Source: Oscillatoriales cyanobacterium (lineage in GTDB: Bacteria; Cyanobacteriota; Cyanobacteriia; Cyanobacteriales; Laspinemataceae). From it: DNA of 64,000 nucleotides. Every line of letters begins with the position of its first letter. The first letter of the stretch is position 1. This document shows, one piece after another, positions 1,512 to 62,763 of this stretch. The DNA is taken from NCBI GenBank assembly GCA_011390955.1, contig JAABRM010000001.1, positions 174,694-238,693 of the forward strand, read 5' to 3'. The notes beneath the pieces are model-generated. The model was given only the letters and a program-made list of their open reading frames with translations. It was not told the DNA's origin and did no database searches. The position numbers were made by a program, and so were the translations under genes.

Positions 1512-4500
1512 TTAATCGGCTTGAATGGGTAATATAATCGTGAATTCAGCACCATTTCCAGGGGATGAATGACAAATTAGTTGCCCGTGGTGTTTTTCTA
1601 CGATAATTTGGTGGCTAATTGATAAACCTAATCCTTTGCCGCTGCCCACAGGTTTGGTAGTAAAAAATGGTTCAAAAATTTTCTCACATAAGGCTTGTGG
1701 GATGCCAGGGCCATTATCCCGAATTTTGATGGAAATCGAGTCTCGATCGATTTGTTCAGTGGCGACCAAAATTGTTGGCATGGTTACTGTCTGGTTTTCC
1801 GAGTTAATTTTCTGGTTACTGGTTGGAGATGCGGCTAAACTTAAAGCATAGATAGAATTGTCTAGAATATTGAAAAATACTTGATTTAAGTCTCCAGCGT
1901 AACACTGGACTAAAGGCAGTTTGCCATATTGCTTAATTAAGTTAATATTATTTAATCGATGCTGTAAAATCATCAAGGTGCTGTCTAGACCTGTGTGAAT
2001 GTCAATCCGTTTTATTTCCGCTTCGTCTAACCGAGAAAATGTGCGTAGCCCCAGGACTACATCACGAATGCGATCGCTCCCGTTTTTCATAGAAGACAAA
2101 ATTTTGAGCAAGTCTTCACTTAAATATTCCAGGTCAATATCTTCGATTTTTGCTTCAATTTCCGGTGGAACTTTGGGGAAGTTGGTTTGATAAAGGTCTA
2201 AAAGTTCTAACAAGTCTTGGATGTAATCATTGGCTGGGTCTAAATTAGCGGCAATGAAATTAATGGGATTATTAATTTCGTGAGCAATTCCGGCCACCAT
2301 TTGACCGAGAGAAGACATTTTTTCTGTCTGAATGAGTTGAGCTTCAGTTTTTTGCAGTTGCTTCAAAGTGGCTTGTAACTCCTGGGTTCTCTGCTCGACT
2401 TTTTGTTCTAAGTTATTGTTATAATCTTCTAACTGCTGATTGGCATTGGCTAAATTGCTATAGAGACGAGCATTTTCTAAGGAAATCGCGGCTTGAGATG
2501 ATAACAATTGTAAAACTTCTAGGCGATCGCTGGTAAAAGCCCCGGTGGTTAGGTTGTTTTCTAAGTAAAGTAAACCGATCGCCTGTCCTCTGGCACTAAT
2601 CGGAATACATAATACAGACTTGGGTTGGTGCTTGAGAATATAGGTATCATTGGCAAGTATTTCTTCATCAATGGCATTATTGACCACCAAACTTTGCTGC
2701 GTTCTTTGCACATAATTTAAGGCTGACATTGGTACAGTGTCACTCATTTCTTTTGGGCAAGACTGCAACACCCTGATGCGATCGCCATCCACTTCCCCCA
2801 TAACGGCGATCGTCAAGTTATCGTTGTCATTGAGCATGAGAACCCCTTTTTGAGCGCCACTATTTTGTAAAAGAATTGTCATCAATTTTTCCAGCAAATT
2901 ACTCAGGACAATTTCACTGGATATCGCCTGGGCTGCTTTCATCACCGTGGGTAAATCTAGCAGATTTAAACCTGTAGGCGCTGTTGTTCTGGTGCGAGTG
3001 ATTTCAGTGCTTTGACTGGGGGAGATAGCAATTTGTCCCAGTATTTCTGGATATTGAGTTTCCAGTTGTTTAACTTTGGCGATCGCCCCCCAGCGAAGAT
3101 AACCTTGATGGGCTTCGGTTATATAAAAACGTCCCATATTTTCTCGATCGCGAGACAGATGAAATTCCCCGGCTAGTTCATTGGCGAGGGCTTCTTCTTG
3201 GATATAACCTTGCTGACGGGCTCCAGCGATCGCCTTTTCATAATGTGCGATCGCCTGAGTATCTCTCCCCCGGAATTTAGCCCTTTCTGCCTCCACTAAA
3301 TCATACTTATGCTGAAAATTTTCCGGGCAATGTGCAGCCCACAACTTCATTTGTTTTTGATTGGCTGATATGGTTTTCAAGTAGCGTTTTTTGCTCGGTA
3401 CATCAATCCGCTCTAAATTAGCCAACAGTGCCAAAGAATAGTAAAAAATGTGAGCATAGTATTGAAATGATCCTACACCACCTTTTTTATATTTATCGGT
3501 TAATTCGCCAAATTTTACCGCTGCTTCATAAATTTTTAATAAATAAGCCAGTATGGTTTTATAATGATTGATCATAAACAATAAAGTAATGTTATTTGTT
3601 TCCTCAAATAACTGAACAATTTCGGCTTCTTTCTGGCTTGATTCTCCTAAACACAACGGTGATTCTGAAGGATGAATTAAATTAAACACCATTTGATAAC
3701 ATAACTGGCTAAACCAACTATGAAACTCTAGCTTAGATTTTTTAATTAATTCTAAGTAATGCTTTTTTTGAATAATTAATAAATTGAGCGGATGGCCGCT
3801 AAAAAACATATGATTTGTGTGTTGGACAATGCAATAAAAGCCATATTCTAAATCTCCGTCATTCATGCCAATTTCCCAGGCTTTAAACAACGGTGCTATG
3901 GTTTTTTTAATATGCACATGAACGGGAAGTATCAAGACATAAATAATGTCCATCACTTTACAGCGAATTTTCGACTGAGAATCCTGGTATCGCTCCATCA
4001 CAGCGAGGGATACCCGAGCAAATTCATAAGCTTTTTCCAGTTGCCCGTAAAATCCCGACAAAATCATGGCATAATTGACATAAGCATAAGTCGCTAATGG
4101 TGAATTACCGTTAACAACACAAAGCTTAACCATTGTCAAAATCATTAACTCTAAGAGCAAAGAATTCACATGAAAAGCTGCTCCTATAGCACTTTGAAGA
4201 ATTCTTATGGCTGCTAACTGATAAGGATCGGTCATTTCTGGCAAGTTGATTAAATCAGCAGTTGCCGGAAGTCTACTGGATAATTCTTCTTTCAGCAACC
4301 GAGTTTCTTTTAAAATCTGTGATTTACTATGGGGAAATTGAATTTTTAATTGAGCCAAAATATCCTCAGCAGTTTCTAGGGCTTTTTGTGCCTGAGACTG
4401 ATTAACATAGAACTGCATTTTTACTTCATAAATGGGAATAATATCTAAAATTGACTTAGCTTGCGCGATCGCTACTGCCGCTAAAAAATTTCCTCGCTCT

Positions 4501-7226: not shown

Positions 7227-9089
7227 ATGGCAGAATTCCCTGATTTTAGCAAATACGGCTATCAAATAAAACGTGAATTGGGTCGCAATGTAGCCGGAGG
7301 ACGGCTGACCTACTTGGCTAACCGGATTTTACCCCAAAATTCATCAGCCAATAACGCCGAAAACTGGGTAGTGATTAAGCAATTTCAGTTTGCCACAACG
7401 AGCGCCAATTGGTCAGATTTTAAAGCCCACGATCGCGAAATTAAAGTTTTGCAAAGCCTCGATCGTCCAGGAATTCCTAAATATTTGGATTCTTTCGAGA
7501 CGCCCACGGGTTTTTGTATGGTGCAGGAGTATAAAGAAGCAAAATCTCTGGGAATATTACGCAGTTTTGAGCCAGAACAGATTAAACAAATTGCCCTAGA
7601 CTTGTTAGGAATTTTAGTTTATTTACAAAGTTTAAACCCGTTGGTGATTCATCGAGATATCAAACCAGAAAATATTTTAGTGGCGGAAAATTCCGCAGGT
7701 TCGCTGAAGGTTTATCTGGTTGATTTTGGCTTTGCTCAAATGGGCGGGGGCGAAGTGGCGATGAGCAGTATGGTGAAAGGCACTCTAGGGTTTATGGCAC
7801 CGGAACAGTTGTTTAATCGCAATCTGACTCCGGCATCGGATCTTTATGGTTTGGGGGCGTCTTTAATTTGTTTGCTGACGGCAACTAAATCGATGGAGGT
7901 GGGTAAGTTATTGGATGAAAACTATCATTTTGAATTTAGAGAATTGCTGCCTAAATTGAGTCGGCGCTGGATTTCTTGGCTGGAAAAAATGGTCGAGCCA
8001 GATCCGAAAAATCGCTATGCAAATGCGGCGGAAGCTTTGGCGGCATTGCAACCAATTTATGTTAACCGAACCCCAGAGGTTAAGCTGAGTCCGTCTCCCA
8101 TTGAGTTAGCCGCGTCCAAGGTTGGGGAAACGTTGCGGGTGCAGGTGCTAATAAAAAATTCTGTGCCAGAAACGTTGCTGACGGGTTGGTGGGAGGTGGC
8201 ACCGCATCCGAACGATCCCCCCCAGCCCCCCTTATTAAAGGGGGAGAACGATCCCCCCCAGCCCCCCTTATTAAGGGGGGAGAACGATCCCCCCCAGCCC
8301 CCCTTATTAAGGGGGGAGAACGATCCCCTCCAGCCCCCCTTATTAAGCCATTCTTGGATTAGTTTTAGTCCGTCAAGATTTGCAGACAATCGCGTGGTTT
8401 GTGAGATTTTGATTAATACGCGGAAGCTGAGAACGGGTCAAGTTTACGATCGCCAATTGTTGTTACATACGAATGGGGTGCCGGAAACTCAGACGGTCAG
8501 CTTGACGGTGCAGACGGCGCCGGTGCCGATCGCGGTGCGAAAATTGCCTCGTCGGTTTTTGGGATTACTGTTTTTGGTGGCTGCCGGTGGTTCGGTGGTG
8601 GCTTTGGAGTCCATGATGACTTTGGTGACGGTGGCGATCGCCGGTTTTGTGACTTGGGCGGGTCTTTCGCGGATTTTGGGCAGTCGAAACCATTGGCTAA
8701 AAGTGCTTGTAGCTTTTTTGACTACAATGGTAGTGGCGGGAATTGCCGGATTTGGGATTGGCGTTGTGCTTGGGGCGACGGCGACCGGGTTGTGGACAAC
8801 GGCGATCGCTGCTGCGGTGACGGTGGCAACAGGGGCAAGCTTGCTGGCAACTGCCACGGGAGTGAGAAAAAATTTCGGTACTGGGTGGGCGATCGCGCTT
8901 TGTTTGCTCACAGCAATTTGCGGCATTACTTTCGGTCTGGGTTTAAAATTACAATTATTAGCCTCTCCCTGGCTGTTAGCAATTGCTACCACTGCCCCGG
9001 TACTCGCTTTAGTCCTAATTTTGCCCGCCAGCGATCGGCGACGCCTTGCCAAATATCGGCAATCGGAGCAACATTTAATTGAATCTTAG
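7227..9089 (+). CDS. Membrane-anchored Hanks-type Ser/Thr protein kinase (N-terminal kinase domain, C-terminal multi-TM hydrophobic domain), paralog A
   Basis: Kinase motifs HRDIKPENILV, VDFGFAQ, GTLGFMAPEQ. The C-terminal ~200 aa is almost entirely hydrophobic helices. The central part contains the in-frame 36-bp tandem repeat. Confidence 0.85.
   Translation: MAEFPDFSKYGYQIKRELGRNVAGGRLTYLANRILPQNSSANNAENWVVIKQFQFATTSANWSDFKAHDREIKVLQSLDRPGIPKYLDSFETPTGFCMVQEYKEAKSLGILRSFEPEQIKQIALDLLGILVYLQSLNPLVIHRDIKPENILVAENSAGSLKVYLVDFGFAQMGGGEVAMSSMVKGTLGFMAPEQLFNRNLTPASDLYGLGASLICLLTATKSMEVGKLLDENYHFEFRELLPKLSRRWISWLEKMVEPDPKNRYANAAEALAALQPIYVNRTPEVKLSPSPIELAASKVGETLRVQVLIKNSVPETLLTGWWEVAPHPNDPPQPPLLKGENDPPQPPLLRGENDPPQPPLLRGENDPLQPPLLSHSWISFSPSRFADNRVVCEILINTRKLRTGQVYDRQLLLHTNGVPETQTVSLTVQTAPVPIAVRKLPRRFLGLLFLVAAGGSVVALESMMTLVTVAIAGFVTWAGLSRILGSRNHWLKVLVAFLTTMVVAGIAGFGIGVVLGATATGLWTTAIAAAVTVATGASLLATATGVRKNFGTGWAIALCLLTAICGITFGLGLKLQLLASPWLLAIATTAPVLALVLILPASDRRRLAKYRQSEQHLIES
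8210..8347 (+). repeat. In-frame 36-bp tandem repeat (3.8 copies), each unit carrying the palindrome CCCCCCTTATTAAGGGGGG
   Basis: Unit GAACGATCCCCCCCAGCCCCCCTTATTAAGGGGGGA starts at 8210, 8246, 8282 and 8318. It is translated as (ENDPPQPPLL[K/R]G)n. Paralog B (9295..11235) has no repeat at the equivalent site (APHPNDPKVKPPGHGW). Confidence 0.9.
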
Positions 9090-25029: not shown

Positions 25030-25066
25030 TCGATTATAATACCGTTTTTAATAAAAAATGCAGTAG

Positions 25067-25170
25067 TAGGGGCGCAATGCTTGCGCCCAAATTAAGCTCG
25101 GAATTGTAGCATTATAGTTCTTTCAATTGCGCTTCATAGCATTAAGGGCGCAAGCATTGCGCCCCTACAA
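25067..25170. repeat. GTAGGGGC...GCCCCTAC hairpin element (104 bp) between convergent genes
   Basis: GTAGGGGCGCAATGCTTGCGCCC...GGGCGCAAGCATTGCGCCCCTAC. Confidence 0.7.
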
Positions 25171-25239
25171 TTTTTTGTCAAATTAGTAGAAATTGGTTTA
25201 CAGCAATTTTCTATTGAATCTACCACAAATTTTTGTAGG

Positions 25240-25303
25240 GGCGAAGCATGACCGCAGACAAATTATTGCTGAAAATATTAATCTGAATCCGGTCATGCTT
25301 CGC
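25240..25303. repeat. Second hairpin element of the same family (GTAGGGGCGAAGCATGACC...GGTCATGCTTCGCCC)
   Basis: Perfect 16-bp inverted arms containing GAAGCATG/CATGCTTC. Confidence 0.65.
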
Positions 25304-25445
25304 CCGATCGCGGGTTATAATCGATTATAAATTGGTTTAAATCAGATTTTTTTGGGGAATTTTTTGGTAATTAGAGGCCAACCGCCGTTGACCCCTAATT
25401 ACCATTAATTACCCGGATTTGGCAGCGCCAATAATCAAGCAAAGT

Positions 25446-26945: not shown

Positions 26946-27097
26946 GGATACAAAGATTAATTGGTTTTTTTTCTATCCTCTATTTTGCCAGTTTTTTGCC
27001 AGTTTTTTTGCCCGCCAACTTATCGGTTATCCCATCCGTTATCCCATTCGTTGGTGGTGCGTTACGTTCCACTTCGTTCCACTAACGCACCCTACCA

Positions 27098-27184
27098 CTG
27101 CCACATCCGTTGCCACATCCGTTGCCAATCCGCTGCCAATCCGTTGCCAATCCGTTGCCAATCCGCTGCCAATCCGCTGCCAAA
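27098..27184. repeat. 12-bp tandem repeat TGCCA(A/C)ATCCG(T/C) x7 in the selO/kinase divergent-convergent spacer
   Basis: ctgccacatccgttgccacatccgttgccaatccgctgccaatccgttgccaatccgttgccaatccgctgccaatccgctgcc. Confidence 0.85.
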
Positions 27185-29743: not shown

Positions 29744-29795
29744 CAGTAAGTATTTTTTTAGTTTATTTAGTTTATCGTGTTTTTGGCTGAAAAAA

Positions 29796-29937
29796 TTTGT
29801 TGTTGGTTATTTGTTATTCGTTATTCGTTGGGTAGGGATTCTTTGGTGGTTGGTGGTTGGTGGCTGGGGAATATTCCTCCCATAACAAATAACAAGTAAC
29901 CAACAACGAACAACCAACAACAAACAACCAACAACAA
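29796..29937. repeat. Palindromic (TTGTTG)n ... (CAACAA)n block with a central GGTTGGT repeat
   Basis: Left arm tttgttgttggttatttgttattcgttattcgttgg. Right arm aacaaataacaagtaaccaacaacgaacaaccaacaacaaacaaccaacaacaaa. The arms are inverted complements. Confidence 0.8.
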
Positions 29938-29986
29938 AAAAATTATGAAGTTTTATATGGATTTGATCAAATTAGATCCTTAAGAG

Positions 29987-32230
29987 TTGACTAACAACAT
30001 AAAATATGGGAGATGTTTTACCCCACAAAAGCAAACAATGTTAGGGAGCAGTCCTCCACCCGCTATCGCTCAGGTGCAACTAAACAAAGCCTTAAAACAA
30101 TTTTTTGGCTATGATACTTTTCGCCCCGGACAGCAGCAAATCATTGAAGCGGCGCTACAAAATCGGGATTTATTAATTGTGATGCCCACGGGGGGCGGAA
30201 AATCCCTCTGTTTTCAACTGCCTGCATTGTTGAAACGCGGGGTGACGGTGGTGGTTTCACCCTTAATTGCTTTGATGCAAGACCAGGTAGAAGCCTTGCG
30301 GAATAATGGCATTGGGGCGACTTTTCTCAACAGCACTTTATCGCCCCAAGAGATGCGATCGCGGGAAATGGCGATTATCAATGGCAAAGTGAAACTGCTT
30401 TATGTCGCCCCAGAACGCTTGCTATCCGATCGCTTTTTACCCTTTTTAGACTTACTCCACTATCAAATCGGCATTCACGCTTTTGCCATTGATGAAGCGC
30501 ATTGTGTATCAGAATGGGGGCATGATTTTCGCCCGGAATATCGCCAGTTAAAACTATTGCGCGATCGCTATCCCGATATTCCCATGATGGCACTCACCGC
30601 CACCGCTACAGACCGGGTACGCCAAGATATTATCCAACAACTTGCCCTCAAACAAGTCCTAGTTCATCTAGCGAGTTTTAACCGTCCCAACCTTTACTAT
30701 GAAGTGCGGCAAAAAAACCACAATTCCTATGGGGAACTCCTGCAACTAATTCGCCAAAGCCAAGGGTCTTCTATTGTCTATTGTCTGAGTCGCAAAAAAG
30801 TTGATGAACTAGCTTTTCGCCTCCAACAAGACGGGATTGCCGCTTTACCTTACCATGCCGGAATGCGCGATGAAGACCGCACCAACAATCAAACCCGCTT
30901 TATTCGCGATGACGTGCAAGTAATTGTCGCCACCATTGCTTTTGGCATGGGAATTAATAAGCCAGATGTGCGCTTAGTCGTGCATTATGACTTGCCCAAA
31001 AATATCGAAGGTTACTATCAGGAATCCGGACGGGCAGGACGAGATGGGGAAGAAGCTAAATGTATCTTATTTTTTAGTTATGGGGATTTAAGAACTATCG
31101 ATTTTATTATCGAGCAAAAAACTGAACCCGAAGAACAAAAAATTGCCCGCCAACAGCTTCGCCAAATTATTAACTATGCGGAAGGCACCGACTGTCGGCG
31201 GACAATTTTGCAAGGATATTTTGGCGAAAAACATCCGGGAAATTGTCGAAATTGTGATAATTGTTGCAATCCTCAACCTACGGAAGATTGGACAATTGAA
31301 GCCCAAAAGTTTCTCTCTTGTGTGGCGCGGTGCCAAGAACGCTTTGGCATGGTTTATATTATTGATGTTTTGCGGGGTTCTAAGCAAAAAAGAATTCTCC
31401 AAAATGGTCACGATCGCTTATCCACTTATGGCATTGGCATGGAGAAAACAGCGGAAGAATGGAAGCTATTAGGGCGATCGCTCATTCACCAAGGGTTAGT
31501 GACAGAAACTAATGATGGCTATTCGGTGCTAAAACTAAATGATGCCAGTTGGGAAATCTTGCGAAAACAGCGGTCAGTTTACATCGCTATTCCGAAGAAA
31601 TCTGTCAATGTTCTGACCCCTGCTTCTAATAAAAAAGTTGAATTTGAGACCTTATTTGAAATGTTACGAAGTTTACGCAAACAAGTCGCTGACGAACAAG
31701 CGATCGCCCCTTATATGGTATTTGCGGATTCCACTTTGCGTTTAATGGCACAAATGCGGCCCGAAACCTTAGCCGCGTTGCGAGATATTCCCGGAGTGGT
31801 CGAGTATAAAGTCGCCCAATATGGCGATCGCTTTATCTCCGTGATTACGTCCTATCTTCAAACCCAAATTAACACCCAAAACACCGCCCGAAAATACCCA
31901 AAAACTACGGCATCCGGTTTACCCACCTCTACCCAAATTCATACATTACAATTATATCAAAATGGGTTAACTATCGCCGAAATTGCCGCAATTAGAAATA
32001 TTAAAACCAGTACAGTTGCCAGTCATTTAGCTGATTTAATTGAACTGAATCAACCCATTGATATTAATCAACTTGTTCCCCCGGAACGACAATCGGTAAT
32101 TTGCCAAGCATTCCAAGTCGTAGGCGATCGAGCTTTAACCCCAGTTCGGGATTATTTAGGGGAAAGTTATTCCTATGATGAAATTCGCCTCGTTCGCGGT
32201 GTATGGCGACAACAAAATCCCGAATTTTGA
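29987..32230 (+). CDS. recQ: ATP-dependent DNA helicase RecQ
   Basis: Helicase motifs I (PTGGGKSLCFQLPAL), II (DEAHCVSEWGHDFRP) and ARG-finger region. RQC zinc-binding cysteines (CRNCDNCC). HRDC-like C-terminus. The real start is probably the ATG at 30038 (MLGSSPP). Confidence 0.9.
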   Translation: MTNNIKYGRCFTPQKQTMLGSSPPPAIAQVQLNKALKQFFGYDTFRPGQQQIIEAALQNRDLLIVMPTGGGKSLCFQLPALLKRGVTVVVSPLIALMQDQVEALRNNGIGATFLNSTLSPQEMRSREMAIINGKVKLLYVAPERLLSDRFLPFLDLLHYQIGIHAFAIDEAHCVSEWGHDFRPEYRQLKLLRDRYPDIPMMALTATATDRVRQDIIQQLALKQVLVHLASFNRPNLYYEVRQKNHNSYGELLQLIRQSQGSSIVYCLSRKKVDELAFRLQQDGIAALPYHAGMRDEDRTNNQTRFIRDDVQVIVATIAFGMGINKPDVRLVVHYDLPKNIEGYYQESGRAGRDGEEAKCILFFSYGDLRTIDFIIEQKTEPEEQKIARQQLRQIINYAEGTDCRRTILQGYFGEKHPGNCRNCDNCCNPQPTEDWTIEAQKFLSCVARCQERFGMVYIIDVLRGSKQKRILQNGHDRLSTYGIGMEKTAEEWKLLGRSLIHQGLVTETNDGYSVLKLNDASWEILRKQRSVYIAIPKKSVNVLTPASNKKVEFETLFEMLRSLRKQVADEQAIAPYMVFADSTLRLMAQMRPETLAALRDIPGVVEYKVAQYGDRFISVITSYLQTQINTQNTARKYPKTTASGLPTSTQIHTLQLYQNGLTIAEIAAIRNIKTSTVASHLADLIELNQPIDINQLVPPERQSVICQAFQVVGDRALTPVRDYLGESYSYDEIRLVRGVWRQQNPEF

Positions 32231-32282
32231 CCTGATTTATAGGGCAAAGCATTTCGCTAATAAATTTGGGATTTTCATCAAT

Positions 32283-32365
32283 ATGCTTAAAGGGCGAAGC
32301 ATTTCGGGAATAAATCTCGGCTTTTAACCGAGAAATCATCTGCCGAAATGCTTCGCCCCTACAAT
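32283..32365. repeat. 83-bp direct repeat, copy 1 (nested palindromes, ends in GCTTCGCCCCTAC)
   Basis: Identical to 32823..32905: atgcttaaagggcgaagcatttcgggaataaatctcggcttttaaccgagaaatcatctgccgaaatgcttcgcccctacaat. Confidence 0.9.
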
Positions 32366-32372
32366 GGCACAA

Positions 32373-32804
32373 TGTAGGGTGTGTTCGCGGAAACTTTGGC
32401 ATCAACAATTAACCTCTATTCCAGCCGTAACGCACCACTGGCGGCTAATTAATCATGTTTTAAATTAAATCTGGAACAGGTGTAGGGTGTGTTCGCGGAA
32501 ACTTTGGCATCAACAATTAACCTCTATTCCAGCCGTAACGCACCACTGGCGGCTAATTAATCATGTTTTAAATTAAATCTGGAACAGGTGTAGGGTGTGT
32601 TCGCGGAAACTTTGGCATCAACAATTAACCTCTATTCCAGCCGTAACGCACCACTGGCGGCTAATTAATCATGTTTTAAATTAAATCTGGAACAGGTGTA
32701 GGGTGTGTTCGCGGAAACTTTGGCATCAACAATTAACCTCTATTCCAGCCGTAACGCACCACTGGCGGCTAATTAATCATGTTTTAAATTAAATATGGAA
32801 CAGT
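32373..32804. repeat. Non-coding tandem array: 108-bp unit x4 (nearly identical copies)
   Basis: Unit starts (tgtagggtgtgttcgcggaaactttggcatcaacaattaacc...) are at 32373, 32481, 32589 and 32697. There are stops in all frames. The last unit diverges at its 3' end. Confidence 0.9.
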
Positions 32805-32822
32805 TTAGTATTATCTGCCGAA

Positions 32823-32905
32823 ATGCTTAAAGGGCGAAGCATTTCGGGAATAAATCTCGGCTTTTAACCGAGAAATCATCTGCCGAAATGCTTCGCCCCT
32901 ACAAT
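32823..32905. repeat. 83-bp direct repeat, copy 2
   Basis: Identical to 32283..32365. Confidence 0.9.
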
Positions 32906-32931
32906 AGTTTAATAAATTGGAGATTAAACTC

Positions 32932-33897
32932 ATGCCTGTGGAACTGACTCTGGAACAACAAGAATCTCAAACTGTCCAAAATGCCGAAGTCCACAATACC
33001 GAAGTCCACAATACCGAAGTCCACAATACCGAAGTCCACAATACCGAAGTCCAGAACGCGGAATCCGAAGAGTGGACTCCAACACCTCCCCCTACCGATC
33101 TAATATTTGACGACGGAGAACCGAGGACAAGTAATCGCCATCGCATCGCCATGAATGCCCTCATTGAAGCTGTCACCCTAGCTTATGAAGGACGAGAAGA
33201 TTATTTTGCTGGTGGAAATATGTTCATTTATTACAGCAGCAAACAAGCCCGAAATCGAGATTTTAAAGGCCCTGATGTTTTTATTACCTTGAATGTGGAT
33301 GGGACAAAAGAACGTCAAGGTTGGGTGGTTTGGGAAGAAGAAGGACGCTATCCCGATGTGATTATCGAGTTGATGTCCCCTTCTACTGCGGCTGAGGATT
33401 TGGGCAATAAGAAAAAGCTCTACGAGCAAACTTTTAAAACGGGGCATTATTTTGTCTATGACCCATTTGCTCCCGAATCTTTACAGGGTTGGAAACTAGG
33501 CGAAAATTTCCGTTATGAAGCGATCGCTCCTGACGATCGCGGCTGGCTGTGGTGTTCTAGTTTAGGACTATGGTTGGGTCATTGGTCGGGCACGATCTTA
33601 CGGGAGACGGCGACTTGGTTGCGCTTTTATGACGAAGCGGGAAATTTAGTCAAATTATCCTTTGAGTTAGCTCAACAAGAGCGAGAAATTGCTCAACAAG
33701 AGCGAGAAATTGCTCAACAGGAAAAAGACCGGGCCGATCGCGCTGAATCGGATCTCCAGCAAGAACAACTGGAGAAACAACAAGAAAAAGACCGGGCCGA
33801 TCGCGCTGAAGCTGCTTTAGCCGCAGAACGCGAACAAAAACAAAAATTACGCGATCGCCTACAAGCACTGGGCATTGACCCGGATCGACTGGCTTAA
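32932..33897 (+). CDS. Uma2-family (DUF820) PD-(D/E)xK putative endonuclease with an N-terminal TEVHN x4 repeat and a C-terminal coiled coil
   Basis: Core YFAGGNMFIYY...PDVFITL...PDVIIELMSPST matches the Uma2 family. In-frame 15-bp repeat accgaagtccacaat x4 at 32997..33056. 21-bp and 30-bp coding repeats (QQEREIA x2, QEKDRADRAE x2) at 33663..33810. ATG at 32932 with a GGAG Shine-Dalgarno. Confidence 0.7.
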   Translation: MPVELTLEQQESQTVQNAEVHNTEVHNTEVHNTEVHNTEVQNAESEEWTPTPPPTDLIFDDGEPRTSNRHRIAMNALIEAVTLAYEGREDYFAGGNMFIYYSSKQARNRDFKGPDVFITLNVDGTKERQGWVVWEEEGRYPDVIIELMSPSTAAEDLGNKKKLYEQTFKTGHYFVYDPFAPESLQGWKLGENFRYEAIAPDDRGWLWCSSLGLWLGHWSGTILRETATWLRFYDEAGNLVKLSFELAQQEREIAQQEREIAQQEKDRADRAESDLQQEQLEKQQEKDRADRAEAALAAEREQKQKLRDRLQALGIDPDRLA

Positions 33898-45064: not shown

Positions 45065-45355
45065 GTCATAAACAAATTTGTTGTTGGTTATTTGTTATTT
45101 GTTGGTTGTTATTCGTTATGCTTTACTCGTGATTTGCCTCAAATCACCAACCGACAACAAACAACCAACAACCAACAAACAACCAACAACCAACAACTAA
45201 CAACCGACAACAAACAACCAACAAACAACCAACAACCAACAACCAACAACCAACAACCAACAACCAACAACCAACAACCAACAACCAACCAACAACCAAC
45301 AACCAACAACCAACAACCAACAACCAACAACCAACAACTAACAACTAATAACATC
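45065..45355. repeat. Largest (CAACAA)n/(TTGTTG)n palindromic block (~290 bp) between the convergent ssb and lipB
   Basis: A TTGTTGGTTATTTGTTATTTGTTGG arm is followed by about 200 bp of CAACAACCAACAA units. The ORFs overlapping it (QQTTNN / LLVVGCW translations) are artefacts. Confidence 0.85.
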
Positions 45356-54718: not shown

Positions 54719-55202
54719 TGAGGCGCGAATCCCCGATCCACGAACACAGGGTTGAATTGGTAAAAAATTCGGTAATTTTGCCCGATCCATCATCTACAAA
54801 TTCCGACTAACATATTTGACAATTTTAATTTCTTAGGACTTACGCAAATCTAGGATTTAATCACTATATATATTGCATGGTGGGCAATGCCCACCCTACA
54901 TATAGATTAGCTGCTATCGTCCTGTTTCTAATGTCAATTTTTCCTCACAAATTCCCCGATTAAGTCATGGGGCGATAAAAAAACCTAGCTGATTGTTTGT
55001 CTTAGCTAGGTTAGGCAGAAAATTTAACATTTTTTATTTAACTTTCACTTGATGTAACTTAAATTGAGCAATATTTTCTCATGGGCTGTCTTGTCTGGGT
55101 TAAGCAATCCCGACAGGTTGAGTAAATTTTTGATGACAAAAGACAAGCATTCACAAAAATTAATTTCTTTGAATGGAAGGGCGAGTGGGGGGTGAAGCAA
55201 AA

Positions 55203-58904: not shown

Positions 58905-58974
58905 AGATATTTTGGCTTTTTGATGTTATTCGATGATGGATAAAACCAAGATATCAATTAGTTGTCTTCTTAGT

Positions 58975-59102
58975 TCTTTGTTATTCGTTATTGGTTATTT
59001 GTTGTTTGTTGTTGGTTATTGGTTATTTGTTGTTTGTTGTTGGTTGTTGGTTGTTTGTTCAGCAGCCACCATCCAATAACGAATAACCAATAACCAATAA
59101 CT
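58975..59102. repeat. (TTGTTG)n...(CAATAAC)n palindromic block in the GH116 / transporter divergent spacer
   Basis: ctttgttattcgttattggttatttgttgtttgttgttggtt...ccaataacgaataaccaataaccaataac. Confidence 0.8.
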
Positions 59103-59150
59103 AAGATCATCCGGGGATTGACAAAAGCCTAAATTGTAAGTGTAAATGCG

Positions 59151-60375: not shown

Positions 60376-60496
60376 GTAGAGACACGGCTTACCTATCGAA
60401 CCTTGTAGGGACACGGCATTGCCGTGTCCCTACCACACTTCATAAGTATGGAATCTGCTGTATCCAACCGATTAACTTTTTTTACTCAAATGTAGG
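60341..60496. repeat. 36-bp direct duplication (1 mismatch) of the transporter 3' end, flanking an 84-bp insert that contains the hairpin GTAGGGACACGGCATTGCCGTGTCCCTAC
   Basis: tatccaaccgattaactttttt(c/t)actcaaatgtagg at 60341..60376 and again at 60461..60496. The hairpin is at 60404..60432. Confidence 0.8.
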
Positions 60497-62511: not shown

Positions 62512-62595
62512 TTACATAAAGTGGGCAATGCTTTTTAATCTTTGATTCTCATTAACAAATTATCTACATTGCCCACCAGATAATTAATTTTTGTA

Positions 62596-62763
62596 GGGGC
62601 ATGACATTAATAACTTATGATACATACAGTTAACATAAAAAATGTCATGCCCCGATTTTATGATTAAAAAAATTAATTTAATTATTAATTATTGATTGGG
62701 TTGGGCATGGCATTTTTTAGGTTATTTATTAGTATCATAAATTAACGATGCCATGCCCCTACA
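62596..62763. repeat. 168-bp element bounded by GTAGGGGCATGACATT ... GATGCCATGCCCCTAC (same terminal family as the other GTAGGGGC hairpins)
   Basis: Two nested hairpins: GGGGCATGACATT...AATGTCATGCCCC and GGGCATGGCATT...GATGCCATGCCC. AT-rich interior. Lies between convergent genes. Confidence 0.65.

Follow-up and report, generated by a model that had tools for sequence, protein, structure and literature searches.

A GTAG-tagged, probably REP-like repeat cluster with a tandemly amplified segment between recQ and uma2 in a Planktothricoides-like cyanobacterium

REP and REPIN clusters made of tandem, near-identical units that include flanking DNA have already been described (PMC3116915, PMC3733652), and the largest cluster in P. 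fluorescens SBW25 comprises four REPINs and one extra REP over >700 bp (Bertels & Rainey 2011, PMC3116915; Di Nocera et al. 2013, PMC3733652). The catalogued GTAG REPs have loops of 2-20 nt (PMC3116915, PMC3733652). Long REPs accompany the cyanobacterial TnpA_REP subclasses 2.4, 2.7, and 2.8, and those belonging to subclasses 2.7 and 2.8 carry a 5' GT[AG]G (Quentin et al. 2018, PMC6006769). In these long REPs, the tag lies 0-2 nt from the stem, and a 1-3-nt bulge joins the basal stem to a second stem (PMC6006769). Each repeat of nsiR1 has its own promoter, and every heterocystous genome has a conserved nsiR1 array beside hetF (PMC4030482).

We analysed a 64-kb stretch of DNA (hereafter, the window) in which four tandem 108-bp units lie in the spacer between recQ and a downstream Uma2-family gene (uma2). 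The host of the array is a Planktothricoides-like cyanobacterium, and the window RecQ protein has 92% identity to that of Planktothricoides raciborskii. The repeat cluster starts 12 bp past the recQ stop codon, and a GGAG ribosome-binding motif lies 5' of the uma2 ATG; the spacer is non-coding, with a longest open run of 59 codons across 32231-32931. Further RecQ matches in the genome-contig search were distant, with ≤60% identity among the matches listed, and searches for the exact RecQ and Uma2 proteins of the window matched no recorded contig. The features of the locus are given below, where A denotes the 83-bp element, H2 the hairpin within each unit, and names beginning with L the contigs that were compared with the window.

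30038-32230, plus strand: recQ (Pfam DEAD, Helicase_C, RecQ_Zn_bind, RQC, HRDC, and HTH_40)
32242-32282, no strand assigned: degenerate half of an older A-family hairpin, GGGCAAAGCATTTCGC plus loop TAATAAATTTGGGATTTTCATCAAT, with 82% identity in register to the start of the 83-bp element
32283-32365, minus strand: left copy of A (A1), identical to 32823-32905; fold of -46.7 kcal/mol, z = -8.4 (minus strand)
32366-32372, no strand assigned: 7-bp linker GGCACAA from A1 to unit 1, also in L088 and L101, not in P. raciborskii
32373-32480, plus strand: unit 1, 108 bp, with H2 at 32374-32437 and then an AT-rich tail at 32438-32480; covariance-model score 74.7 bits
32481-32588, plus strand: unit 2, same as unit 1, with H2 at 32482-32545
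32589-32696, plus strand: unit 3, same as unit 1, with H2 at 32590-32653
32697-32804, plus strand: unit 4, with H2 at 32698-32761, A at 32795, and T at 32804
32805-32822, no strand assigned: TTAGTATTATCTGCCGAA, abutting A2 and retaining in its 3' part a vestige of an A-type 3' arm, ATTATCTGCCGAA running into ATGCTT
32823-32905, minus strand: right copy of A (A2), its CTACAAT end 26 bp 5' of the uma2 start codon
32932-33897, plus strand: Uma2-family gene, the downstream neighbour (Pfam PF05685, E = 9.6e-14)

We consider this locus likely to be a cluster of GTAG-tagged, REP-like stem-loops that grew in the recQ-uma2 spacer, one segment of which was recently amplified in tandem. Its layout is almost the same as that of the SBW25 cluster, and it shows the trait of tandem REPIN clusters, in that each of the four 108-bp units combines an element with a non-element flank. 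As in REPIN and REP clusters, including E. coli BIME-type arrays, the repeats carry a 5' GTAG, are dispersed and nested, and vary in content between strains. Both H2 and A share with GTAG REPs an unpaired tag 0-2 nt from a stable imperfect palindrome; however, their loops are ~29-35 nt long, well above the catalogued 2-20 nt. Because of these long loops, and because GTAG is present at one end only, H2 and A are not canonical REP singlets or REPINs, and we refer to them as REP-like. H2 resembles the long REPs of Quentin et al. in its cyanobacterial host, its tag near the stem, and its bulged two-part stem (9 bp + 6 bp in the H2a variant); however, those REPs are defined as flanking tnpA_REP and were searched for with an apical loop of 2-5 nt, whereas the H2 loop is far larger. 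A tblastn search with IS608 TnpA and YafM queries and an HUH...Y motif scan, which covered the 64-kb window together with ~230 kb from related loci, detected no HUH-Y1 (RAYT or IS200) transposase; the link to REP/RAYT systems is therefore by resemblance only. For oscillatorian cyanobacteria, we found no catalogue of H2 or A families in the literature.

MITE and VNTR loci are likewise similar, since they include small non-autonomous spacer repeats with presence/absence polymorphism and a VNTR-type series such as the 0, 1, and 4 units seen here; however, neither H2 nor A has the combination of TIR and target-site duplication that marks a MITE. When filled and empty recQ-uma2 sites are compared, the difference consists of a duplicated 83 bp plus additional non-element DNA, with no short target-site duplication, and the ends of H2 (GTAGGG... 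and ...GCACCAC) are the base of its stem rather than duplication-flanked TIRs.

TRF identified the array as 4.0 copies of a 108-bp period with 99% matches over 32373-32803. A 30-mer of the unit has four matches compared with 0 expected, which excludes chance. Each unit consists of the 64-nt H2 and a 43-44-bp AT-rich non-element tail, and H2 of unit 1 reads GTAG + GGTGTGTT(C)GCGG ... CCGTAACGCACC + A. A preliminary description of this DNA had placed four 108-bp units between two identical 83-bp elements in the recQ-Uma2 spacer, and both the coordinates and the 100% identity of the elements hold; so do an inner hairpin in the element and stops in all frames of the unit. Units 1-3 are identical, and unit 4 departs from them at 32795 (C>A) and 32804 (G>T); at these two bases, both within the last 10 bp of the unit, unit 4 has the same state as the single unit of L088. 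This resemblance of the 3' end of unit 4 to L088, with two derived bases common to units 1-3, fits a stepwise expansion. The start-to-start distance from A1 to A2 is 540 bp, or 5 x 108; this equality is probably due to chance, as in L088 a 114-bp unit accompanies the same 108 bp of non-unit DNA.

Among the DNA compared, the tail was found at the recQ-uma2 locus only (in the window and L088), and the units are identical along their length, tail included; together these observations point to segmental duplication rather than repeated transposition. The possibility that the unit might be a ubiquitous genomic repeat is thus answered in two parts: its 64-nt core is dispersed, but in the DNA compared the tail, and hence the whole unit, was found only at this locus. 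A search for microhomology at the duplication boundaries found T[G/T]TAG at either end of the lone L088 unit, but the junction as observed carries an additional G.

H2 is a stem-loop of 64-70 nt with a 5' GTAG, a bulged stem of 12-15 bp, a loop of ~34 nt, and a closing stem; in outline its sequence is GTAGGGTGYGTT...GTAACGCACCA, and the GTAG directly adjoins the stem GGTGTGTT.... The H2a stem is 15 bp long, interrupted by a 1-nt bulge (9 bp, bulge, 6 bp), and has z = -4 to -4.7, whereas the H2b stem in the window has 12 bp with a bulge and z = -1.45 only. A dispersal scan was performed with a 20-mer of the H2 3' arm as query. Whole copies of H2, with 81-91% identity to that of the window, are present in five cyanobacterial metagenome contigs, where they occupy unrelated intergenic contexts adjoining DnaJ, SelO, COP23, and DUF4912/MFS genes. 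Three P. raciborskii genomes have a further H2 downstream of selO, tagged CTAG rather than GTAG, which is missing from the orthologous site in the window. Across the contigs compared, H2 occupies six independent intergenic sites. The H2b variant of the window units is also present in L095, whose MFS gene is ≤73% identical to that of any named genus.

The 3' half of the H2 loop, AACAATTAACCTCTATTCC, is conserved across contigs of apparently different genera. The stems are nearly invariant among the seven sequences available, so covariation testing of H2 is uninformative. A covariance-model search of 337 kb returned no new full H2, just other GTAG hairpins of similar build at weak scores, and a search of a plasmid collection (blastn, E ≤ 1e-3) and of viral contigs returned no match. 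The 20-mer of the H2b 5' arm, TGTAGGGTGTGTTCGCGGAA, has no exact match in GTDB representative genomes, indicating that either the source species or the H2b variant is not represented there.

The two copies of A (32283-32365 and 32823-32905) are 83 bp each and 100% identical, and the identity ends exactly at both borders. Whereas the element had been described as ending in CTAC, its real end is ...GCTTCGCCCCTACAAT, and the plus-strand end is CTACAAT. In outline, A reads GTAGGGGCGAAGCAT...ATGCTTCGCCC. Its arms, GGGCGAAGCATTTCGG and CCGAAATGCTTCGCCC, are 16-nt perfect complements placed 35 nt apart, so that the minus strand consists of GTAG, a 16-bp stem, a 35-nt loop with an inner 5-bp hairpin (CTCGGCTTTTAACCGAG), and the returning stem; on that strand, GTAG is followed by GGGGCGAAGCATTTCGG. 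Folding energies of A range from -39 to -47 kcal/mol (z = -6 to -8), and the arm motif has five matches compared with 0.05 expected, which excludes chance. A1 and the first H2 point toward each other with their tagged ends. Relatives of the A family are present in L081, L092, L097, and the window itself (25235-25305), at least five sites in all, and the relative in L092 has a compensatory TCCGG/CCGGA change.

Remnants of A-type hairpins adjoin both copies. The degenerate half hairpin at 32242-32282 is kept in P. raciborskii, L088, and L101, and L081 has a fuller version of it. On the other side, the 19-nt sequence ATTATCTGCCGAAATGCTT from the 32805-32822 region is identical to the A1 3' arm of L088 and L101. 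The analysis extends the preliminary description in three respects: the core of the unit is a dispersed GTAG hairpin, A is of the same general class, and the architecture is one known for REP and REPIN clusters.

Among relatives, the orthologous spacer of the three P. raciborskii genomes and of the P0127 group has one A and 0 units. Of two closer relatives, L088 has A, a single 114-bp unit, and a second A inside which the contig ends, and its two A copies are not identical to each other; L101 has A and then H2, with the contig end inside H2. The window has four units, which gives a series of 0, 1, and 4 among relatives. The single orthologous A of P. raciborskii and the A1 copies of L088 and L101 differ from the window A1 in the loop. 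The repeat content of the spacer is wholly different in L081, L097, and L100, and in more distant relatives the spacer downstream of recQ is also full of repeats. This locus is an ordinary bacterial repeat cluster that is variable between close relatives. The orthologous spacers support the earlier suggestion of an insertion with an amplified internal unit, or of a minisatellite nucleated by a hairpin, and they agree with the view of the array as recent and unstable.

The proposed history has three steps. The ancestor would have had a single A; alternatively, two A copies may have recombined, with loss of the remainder. The ancestor shared by the window, L088, and L101 would then have carried a block comprising the linker, H2, the tail, and a second A. 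In the window lineage, H2 plus tail may have increased from one copy to four by unequal homologous recombination or replication slippage between sister copies, and gene conversion or re-duplication may have made the two A copies 100% identical. A RAYT-type transposase could have played a role in seeding the elements. Growth of the array by local unequal recombination or slippage is the most likely course, and we regard the cluster as most probably neutral or selfish DNA. Because the 83-bp direct repeats are identical, the whole 540-bp cassette is deletable in one recombination step. Any effect of the cluster would be that of a REP in a 3' UTR, where hairpins in read-through recQ RNA would slow 3' exonucleases; alternatively, hairpins in the recQ transcript could attenuate read-through into uma2.

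The copy number of the perfect array (432 bp) hinges on the assembly of the source contig, as does the single unit of L088. We therefore considered whether the four-copy array, or its exact count, is an assembly artefact, which we judge unlikely. Short reads cannot count a perfect 108-bp tandem repeat bounded by 83-bp repeats, the 100% identity of units 1-3 leaves no internal anchor for the count, and the short-read contigs of relatives do break in repeats (L088 in the second A, L101 in H2, and L082-84 in heptamer repeats). However, the order A-H2-tail-A was recovered independently in L088 and partly in L101, which indicates that the structure of the locus is real; the source contig of 302,693 bp runs through many other repeat arrays, and assemblers usually collapse rather than expand such arrays.

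It is similarly improbable that oscillatorian cyanobacteria have in H2 a so far uncatalogued element that acts as a structured RNA or binds protein, and that the array is a dosage expansion near recQ and uma2. The conservation of the 3' half of the H2 loop across genera could reflect a sequence-specific function rather than junk. In that proposal, the usual site of H2 is just downstream of a gene in sense orientation, and the array lies in the recQ 3' UTR or the uma2 5' region.

A related proposal is that the units are tandem small-RNA genes like NsiR1, each 108-bp unit having its own promoter and the H2 hairpin being the RNA core. The nsiR1 array is similar to the one described here in that both consist of non-coding direct repeats of ~100 bp, with a hairpin per repeat, in a cyanobacterial intergenic region, and NsiR1 sets the example of sRNA genes arrayed in tandem with a promoter in each repeat (PMC4030482). 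The H2 sequence, part of the loop included, is conserved across contigs of different organisms, and T.G pairs in the stem make the GTAG strand fold slightly better than its complement (-24.4 vs -22.9 kcal/mol in L088, and -26.2 vs -24.7 kcal/mol in L086). H2 is also co-oriented with the upstream gene at five of the six independent sites; however, this bias is not significant. The preliminary description had raised a match of the unit to a known ncRNA or promoter, and this was not borne out: no Rfam family matched at gathering score or E ≤ 10 beyond generic hairpins, mostly of miRNA precursors, which were far below their gathering scores. A scan limited to the sigma-70-type consensus, and thus only weakly informative as a negative, found no promoter-like site between 32100 and 33000, nor did any unit have a terminator on the plus strand. 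Furthermore, close relatives have no array or a single copy, in contrast to the conserved, syntenic arrays of nsiR1, and the amplified variant is H2b, the weaker folder (z = -1.45 vs -4 to -4.7 for H2a). We regard tandem small-RNA genes as very unlikely.

Hardly any weight can be given to the reading of the locus as a selected regulatory module, in which A and H2 would terminate or insulate recQ, CTACAAT would act as a -10 box, and copy number would tune expression. TACAAT (32900-32905), 26 bp 5' of the uma2 ATG, is retained by all relatives with A at that position, the very stable A hairpin is located just past the recQ stop codon, and most REPs lie 3' of genes and are considered to function as RNA elements (PMC3733652). 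However, the promoter scan returned no acceptable -35/-10 pair, no T-run follows any plus-strand hairpin, terminator-like sites occur solely on the minus strand, with no gene reading in, and the different spacer repeats of L081, L097, and L100 argue against a conserved module. In this proposal, the right A would supply the -10 box for uma2 and the left A that for the array.

Three further candidates were rejected: a CRISPR array, because whole units are identical, including the stretches between hairpins, and there are thus no unique spacers; IS200/IS605 PATE or TnpB omega-RNA remnants, given the single hairpin and no transposase nearby; and pairing of the H2 loop CCUCU with the uma2 ribosome-binding site, for which there is no complementary run.

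Under the preferred reading of a REP-like cluster with one amplified segment, the striking perfect array is ordinary REP-like clustering plus local amplification and need not be pursued as a new system. The recQ-uma2 spacer is a ready VNTR marker (0, 1, or 4 units) for telling Planktothricoides lineages apart, and the consensus sequences of H2 and A add two long-loop GTAG-tagged families to a sparse cyanobacterial REP catalogue. The points at which repeats of the H2 and A type interrupt short-read assemblies are predictable as well. If H2 or A were found to flank a cognate RAYT, this cluster would offer a natural REPIN-cluster life cycle (seeding, amplification, and direct-repeat deletion) outside Proteobacteria.

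The hexamer GTAGGG, with which H2 begins, is enriched, with 29 occurrences compared with 15.6 ± 3.7 expected. A separate element of the window, at 25066-25168, fits the REPIN layout, and L092 contains a true MITE (11-bp TIR, TA duplication) nested inside another copy of H2.

Based on sequence comparison, the repeat array between recQ and the Uma2-family gene appears to have expanded recently and to vary between strains. It is a tandem cluster, four units as assembled, of a dispersed hairpin element tagged with GTAG, and it is flanked by two seemingly homogenised copies of a second GTAG-tagged element, A. Two families of GTAG-tagged long stem-loops are nested in this spacer.

Features of the recQ-uma2 region of the window
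30038-32230, full-length RecQ helicase, neighbour of the array
32283-32365 and 32823-32905, 83-bp copies of A (A1, left; A2, right), 100% identical, with identity breaking off exactly at those ends
32373-32803, 108-bp period, 4.0 copies, 99% matches (Tandem Repeats Finder)
32932-33897, Uma2-family protein, the other neighbour

The preliminary description had reported two identical 83-bp elements with nested palindromes around four near-identical 108-bp units with stops in every frame, and these observations, like the position between recQ and the Uma2 gene, were all confirmed. Comparison of the units found units 1-3 mutually identical, and unit 4 departs from them solely at 32795 (C>A) and 32804 (G>T). 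Each of the unit's six frames is interrupted by stops, the array contains no ORF of ≥40 aa, and shuffled controls excluded a chance origin of the repeat structure. Each 83-bp copy has perfect 16-nt inverted arms (GGGCGAAGCATTTCGG / CCGAAATGCTTCGCCC) separated by 35 nt, with an inner CTCGG...CCGAG hairpin, and folds at -39 to -47 kcal/mol (z = -6 to -8 against shuffled controls).

The window RecQ is 92% identical to that of Planktothricoides raciborskii, so the source is a Planktothricoides-like oscillatorian cyanobacterium. We compared the spacer with those of relatives.

recQ-uma2 spacers of relatives
P. raciborskii, three assemblies including complete genome CP159837: RecQ 92%; spacer ~160 bp
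P0127 group, many metagenome contigs in the 90% RecQ cluster of P. raciborskii: spacer in the same state as P. raciborskii
L088: 94.5% DNA identity across recQ; A, the 7-bp linker GGCACAA, one 114-bp unit, TTAGTATTATCTGCCGAA, then A, within which the contig terminates
L101: RecQ 94%; A, GGCACAA and the beginning of a unit of the L088/window type, where the contig terminates
L081: RecQ 92%, separate lineage; CACTATT heptamers and two related A-type hairpins, without the unit
L097: RecQ 84%; GTAG element nested in an A-like hairpin, followed by hairpins in a 26-bp x 6 array
L100: RecQ 81%; heptamers of GTGAAAA plus several palindromes of the form GTAG...CTAC

In all three P. raciborskii assemblies the spacer consists of a degenerate half-element, one A-type hairpin and the uma2 ribosome-binding site, with no 108-bp unit and no second A. 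Because the spacers hold 0, 1 or 4 units, the array appears to be lineage-specific; the copy-number variation that had been proposed as a check was seen, and the earlier reading as an amplified insertion or hairpin-nucleated minisatellite is supported in refined form. The spacer itself looks like a general dumping ground for small repeats. Downstream of recQ in L097 (6440-6600), each unit of the 26-bp x 6 array (AACCAAGACTAAAGTCTTTACTACGA) is a small hairpin, and this is a separate, independent case of tandem hairpins at this position in the genome. The short-read contigs of the relatives L082-L084 break within a CACTATT heptamer run, 56 bp past recQ.

We scanned metagenome contigs with a 20-mer from the 3' arm of the unit hairpin, H2, and obtained eight matches. 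Three were chance matches in GC-rich coding sequence; the other five were in low-GC cyanobacterial contigs and belonged to a complete element, built as GTAG, GGTGYGTTAGGCTGG, a ~34-nt loop, CCAGCCGTAACGCACC and A(C), spanning 64-71 nt and 81-91% identical to the window copy. These copies occupy unrelated intergenic sites beside DnaJ-domain, SelO, COP23, DUF4912/Rho_N and MFS genes, and no transposase was found near them. An extra copy lies just downstream of selO in 3/3 P. raciborskii assemblies, and the orthologous site in the window (25306-25445) is without H2; at two loci, close relatives differ in whether H2 is present. On the minus strand at 27055-27095, a shorter relative of 41 nt has the outer stem of H2 (GTAGGGTGCGTTA...GTAACGCACCAC); it is conserved in P. 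raciborskii. It abuts an 11-bp x 7.6 array (CTGCCAATCCG), the two together covering 27055-27183, and similar GGCAGCGGATGG-type repeats flank the H2 copies in L093 and L095.

The family has two forms: H2a (...GTTAGGCTGGCAA...; stem of 9 bp, 1-nt bulge and 6 bp; z = -4 to -4.7) and H2b (...GTTCGCGGAA...; 12-bp bulged stem; z = -1.5 to -1.9). All four window units are H2b, and L088 and L101 carry H2a at the recQ-uma2 locus. H2b was also found in L095, a contig with an MFS transporter no more than 73% identical to its counterpart in any named genus; this form therefore appears to be a family variant rather than a private deletion.

The suggestion that the unit might be a ubiquitous repeat held only in part: the H2 hairpin is dispersed, but the remaining 44-nt tail (CTGGCGGCTAATTAATCATGTTTTAAATTAAATCTGGAACAGG) follows no other H2 copy and, among the DNA compared, was seen solely at the recQ-uma2 locus of the window and L088. 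Each unit thus comprises one dispersed hairpin element plus local flank. Because the units include this locus-specific tail, the amplification appears to have proceeded by segmental duplication and not by successive insertions.

On the minus strand, A has a GTAG tag, then a stem of 16-18 bp, a loop of 29-35 nt and the returning stem arm, an architecture it shares with H2. Its relatives have the head GTAGGGGCGAAGCAT in common and differ in inner stems or loops.

Relatives of A
Window 25235-25305, head GTAGGGGCGAAGCAT
L081, two copies
L092, with a compensatory TCCGG/CCGGA change
L097, head GTAGGGGCGAAGCAT

The two A copies of L088 differ at ≥1 base over 45 comparable nt, and A1 of L088 and L101 departs from the window A at 4-5 positions of the loop. 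The window copies therefore seem to have become identical recently, through gene conversion or re-duplication, rather than by inheritance.

The ancestor shared by the window, L088 and L101 may have had a block made up of linker, H2, tail and second A. It could have arrived by recombination involving A homology, or it could have been lost from P. raciborskii by recombination between A1 and A2, which would leave exactly the single-A state seen there. The H2-plus-tail segment would then have grown stepwise through unequal crossing-over or slippage, and the A copies would have been homogenised. Unit 4 retains the L088-like 3' end, and units 1-3 share two derived bases. No clean microhomology was found at the duplication junction. 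As the 83-bp direct repeats are identical, the whole 540-bp cassette could presumably be lost in one recombination event. In the window, 83 + 7 + 18 = 108, the unit length; this equality is probably a coincidence, because in L088 the unit is 114 bp and the non-unit DNA between A starts is still 108 bp (spacing 221-222 bp).

Among known systems, NsiR1-type sRNA arrays (PMC4030482), MITEs and CRISPR arrays each differ from this array in a defining feature. Both unicellular and filamentous cyanobacteria are known to have GTAG-tagged REPs. Cyanobacterial TnpA_REP subclasses 2.4, 2.7 and 2.8 are linked to long REPs with bulges, and the REPs of 2.7 and 2.8 carry 5' GT[AG]G (PMC6006769). H2 and A share with REPs the GTAG tag and the stem and may in part share their extragenic dispersal, H2 having been seen at 6 independent intergenic sites across the contigs compared; the array shares with REPIN clusters a tandem cluster that includes flank, essentially the published layout (PMC3116915, PMC3733652). 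The loops of H2 and A are ~29-35 nt and only one end is tagged, without a short loop or symmetric doublet, and no cognate RAYT was found within the ~230 kb of DNA examined. On these grounds, H2 and A are best described as REP-like long stem-loops and not as canonical REP or REPIN members. They add to the catalogue of cyanobacterial REP-like repeats, and the recQ-uma2 cluster is useful as a typing locus.

Nothing indicates that the array is a gene. The suggested check for a match to a known ncRNA or promoter found none: no Rfam family reached its gathering score, matches at E ≤ 10 were far below those scores and mostly miRNA-precursor hairpins, and no sigma-70-like promoter was found in 32100-33000. 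Terminator-like sites are limited to the inner hairpins of A, on the minus strand, and no gene reads into them. Weak hints of an RNA-level role for H2 come from T.G pairs that make it slightly more stable on the GTAG strand, from its position just downstream of a same-orientation gene at 5/6 independent sites (not significant), and from conservation of part of the loop across contigs. REPs have been proposed to act as 3' UTR hairpins that stabilise or attenuate transcripts (PMC3733652), and by analogy this would be the likeliest effect, if any. That the amplified form is the one predicted to fold more weakly, H2b, speaks against the hairpin having been selected for in the array.

GTAGGG occurs 29 times in the window (15.6 +/- 3.7 expected), and the H2 covariance model weakly matches other GTAG hairpins, reflecting shared build.

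Other GTAG-tagged repeats in the window
25066-25168, perfect REPIN-like doublet: GTAGGGGCGCAATGCTTGCGCCC, 57 nt, then its reverse complement
60405-60433, further GTAG-tagged hairpins
62592-62763, inverted hairpin pair: two 61-nt GTAGGGGCATG...CATGCCC, 50 nt apart, 80% complementary

The last pair appears to be another GTAG-tagged family. The spacer downstream of selO (25066-25305 and 25306-25445) holds the doublet plus a second GTAG hairpin; its P. raciborskii counterpart (L086 5000-5495) has an extra REP and an H2 copy, both missing in the window, so this spacer too seems to vary in repeat content between close relatives. In L092 (~2245-2385, minus strand), the H2 copy downstream of selO has a ~150-bp MITE inserted in its loop. 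This MITE has 11-bp terminal inverted repeats (CAGCGGTTTTC) and an apparent TA duplication, and it contains an A-like hairpin of its own, whose stem shows compensatory TCCGG/CCGGA changes.

The Uma2 gene has in-frame repeats near its N-terminus (32974-33053, 15 bp x 5.3, EVHNT) and C-terminus (33670-33719, 21 bp x 2.4, AQQEREI). The L081 Uma2 gene does not have the 15-bp repeats, which makes the coding sequence adjoining the array a variable-repeat locus too. That orthologue (L081 12553-13443) was called in separate pieces of 57, 113 and 127 aa and may therefore be frameshifted or decaying.

A 36-bp x 3.8 array at 8210-8347, with the palindrome CCCCCCTTATTAAGGGGGG in every unit, appears to be a second tandemly reiterated hairpin in the window. 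A ~72-nt dispersed repeat ending in the palindrome GGTGGGCAATGCCCACCCTAC (54835-54906) is 87.5% identical to positions 178-249 of L093, an unrelated metagenome contig. Long heptamer arrays (AACAAAC / CAACCAA type, STRR-like) with inverted blocks lie at 29795-29938, 45076-45353 and 58973-59109.
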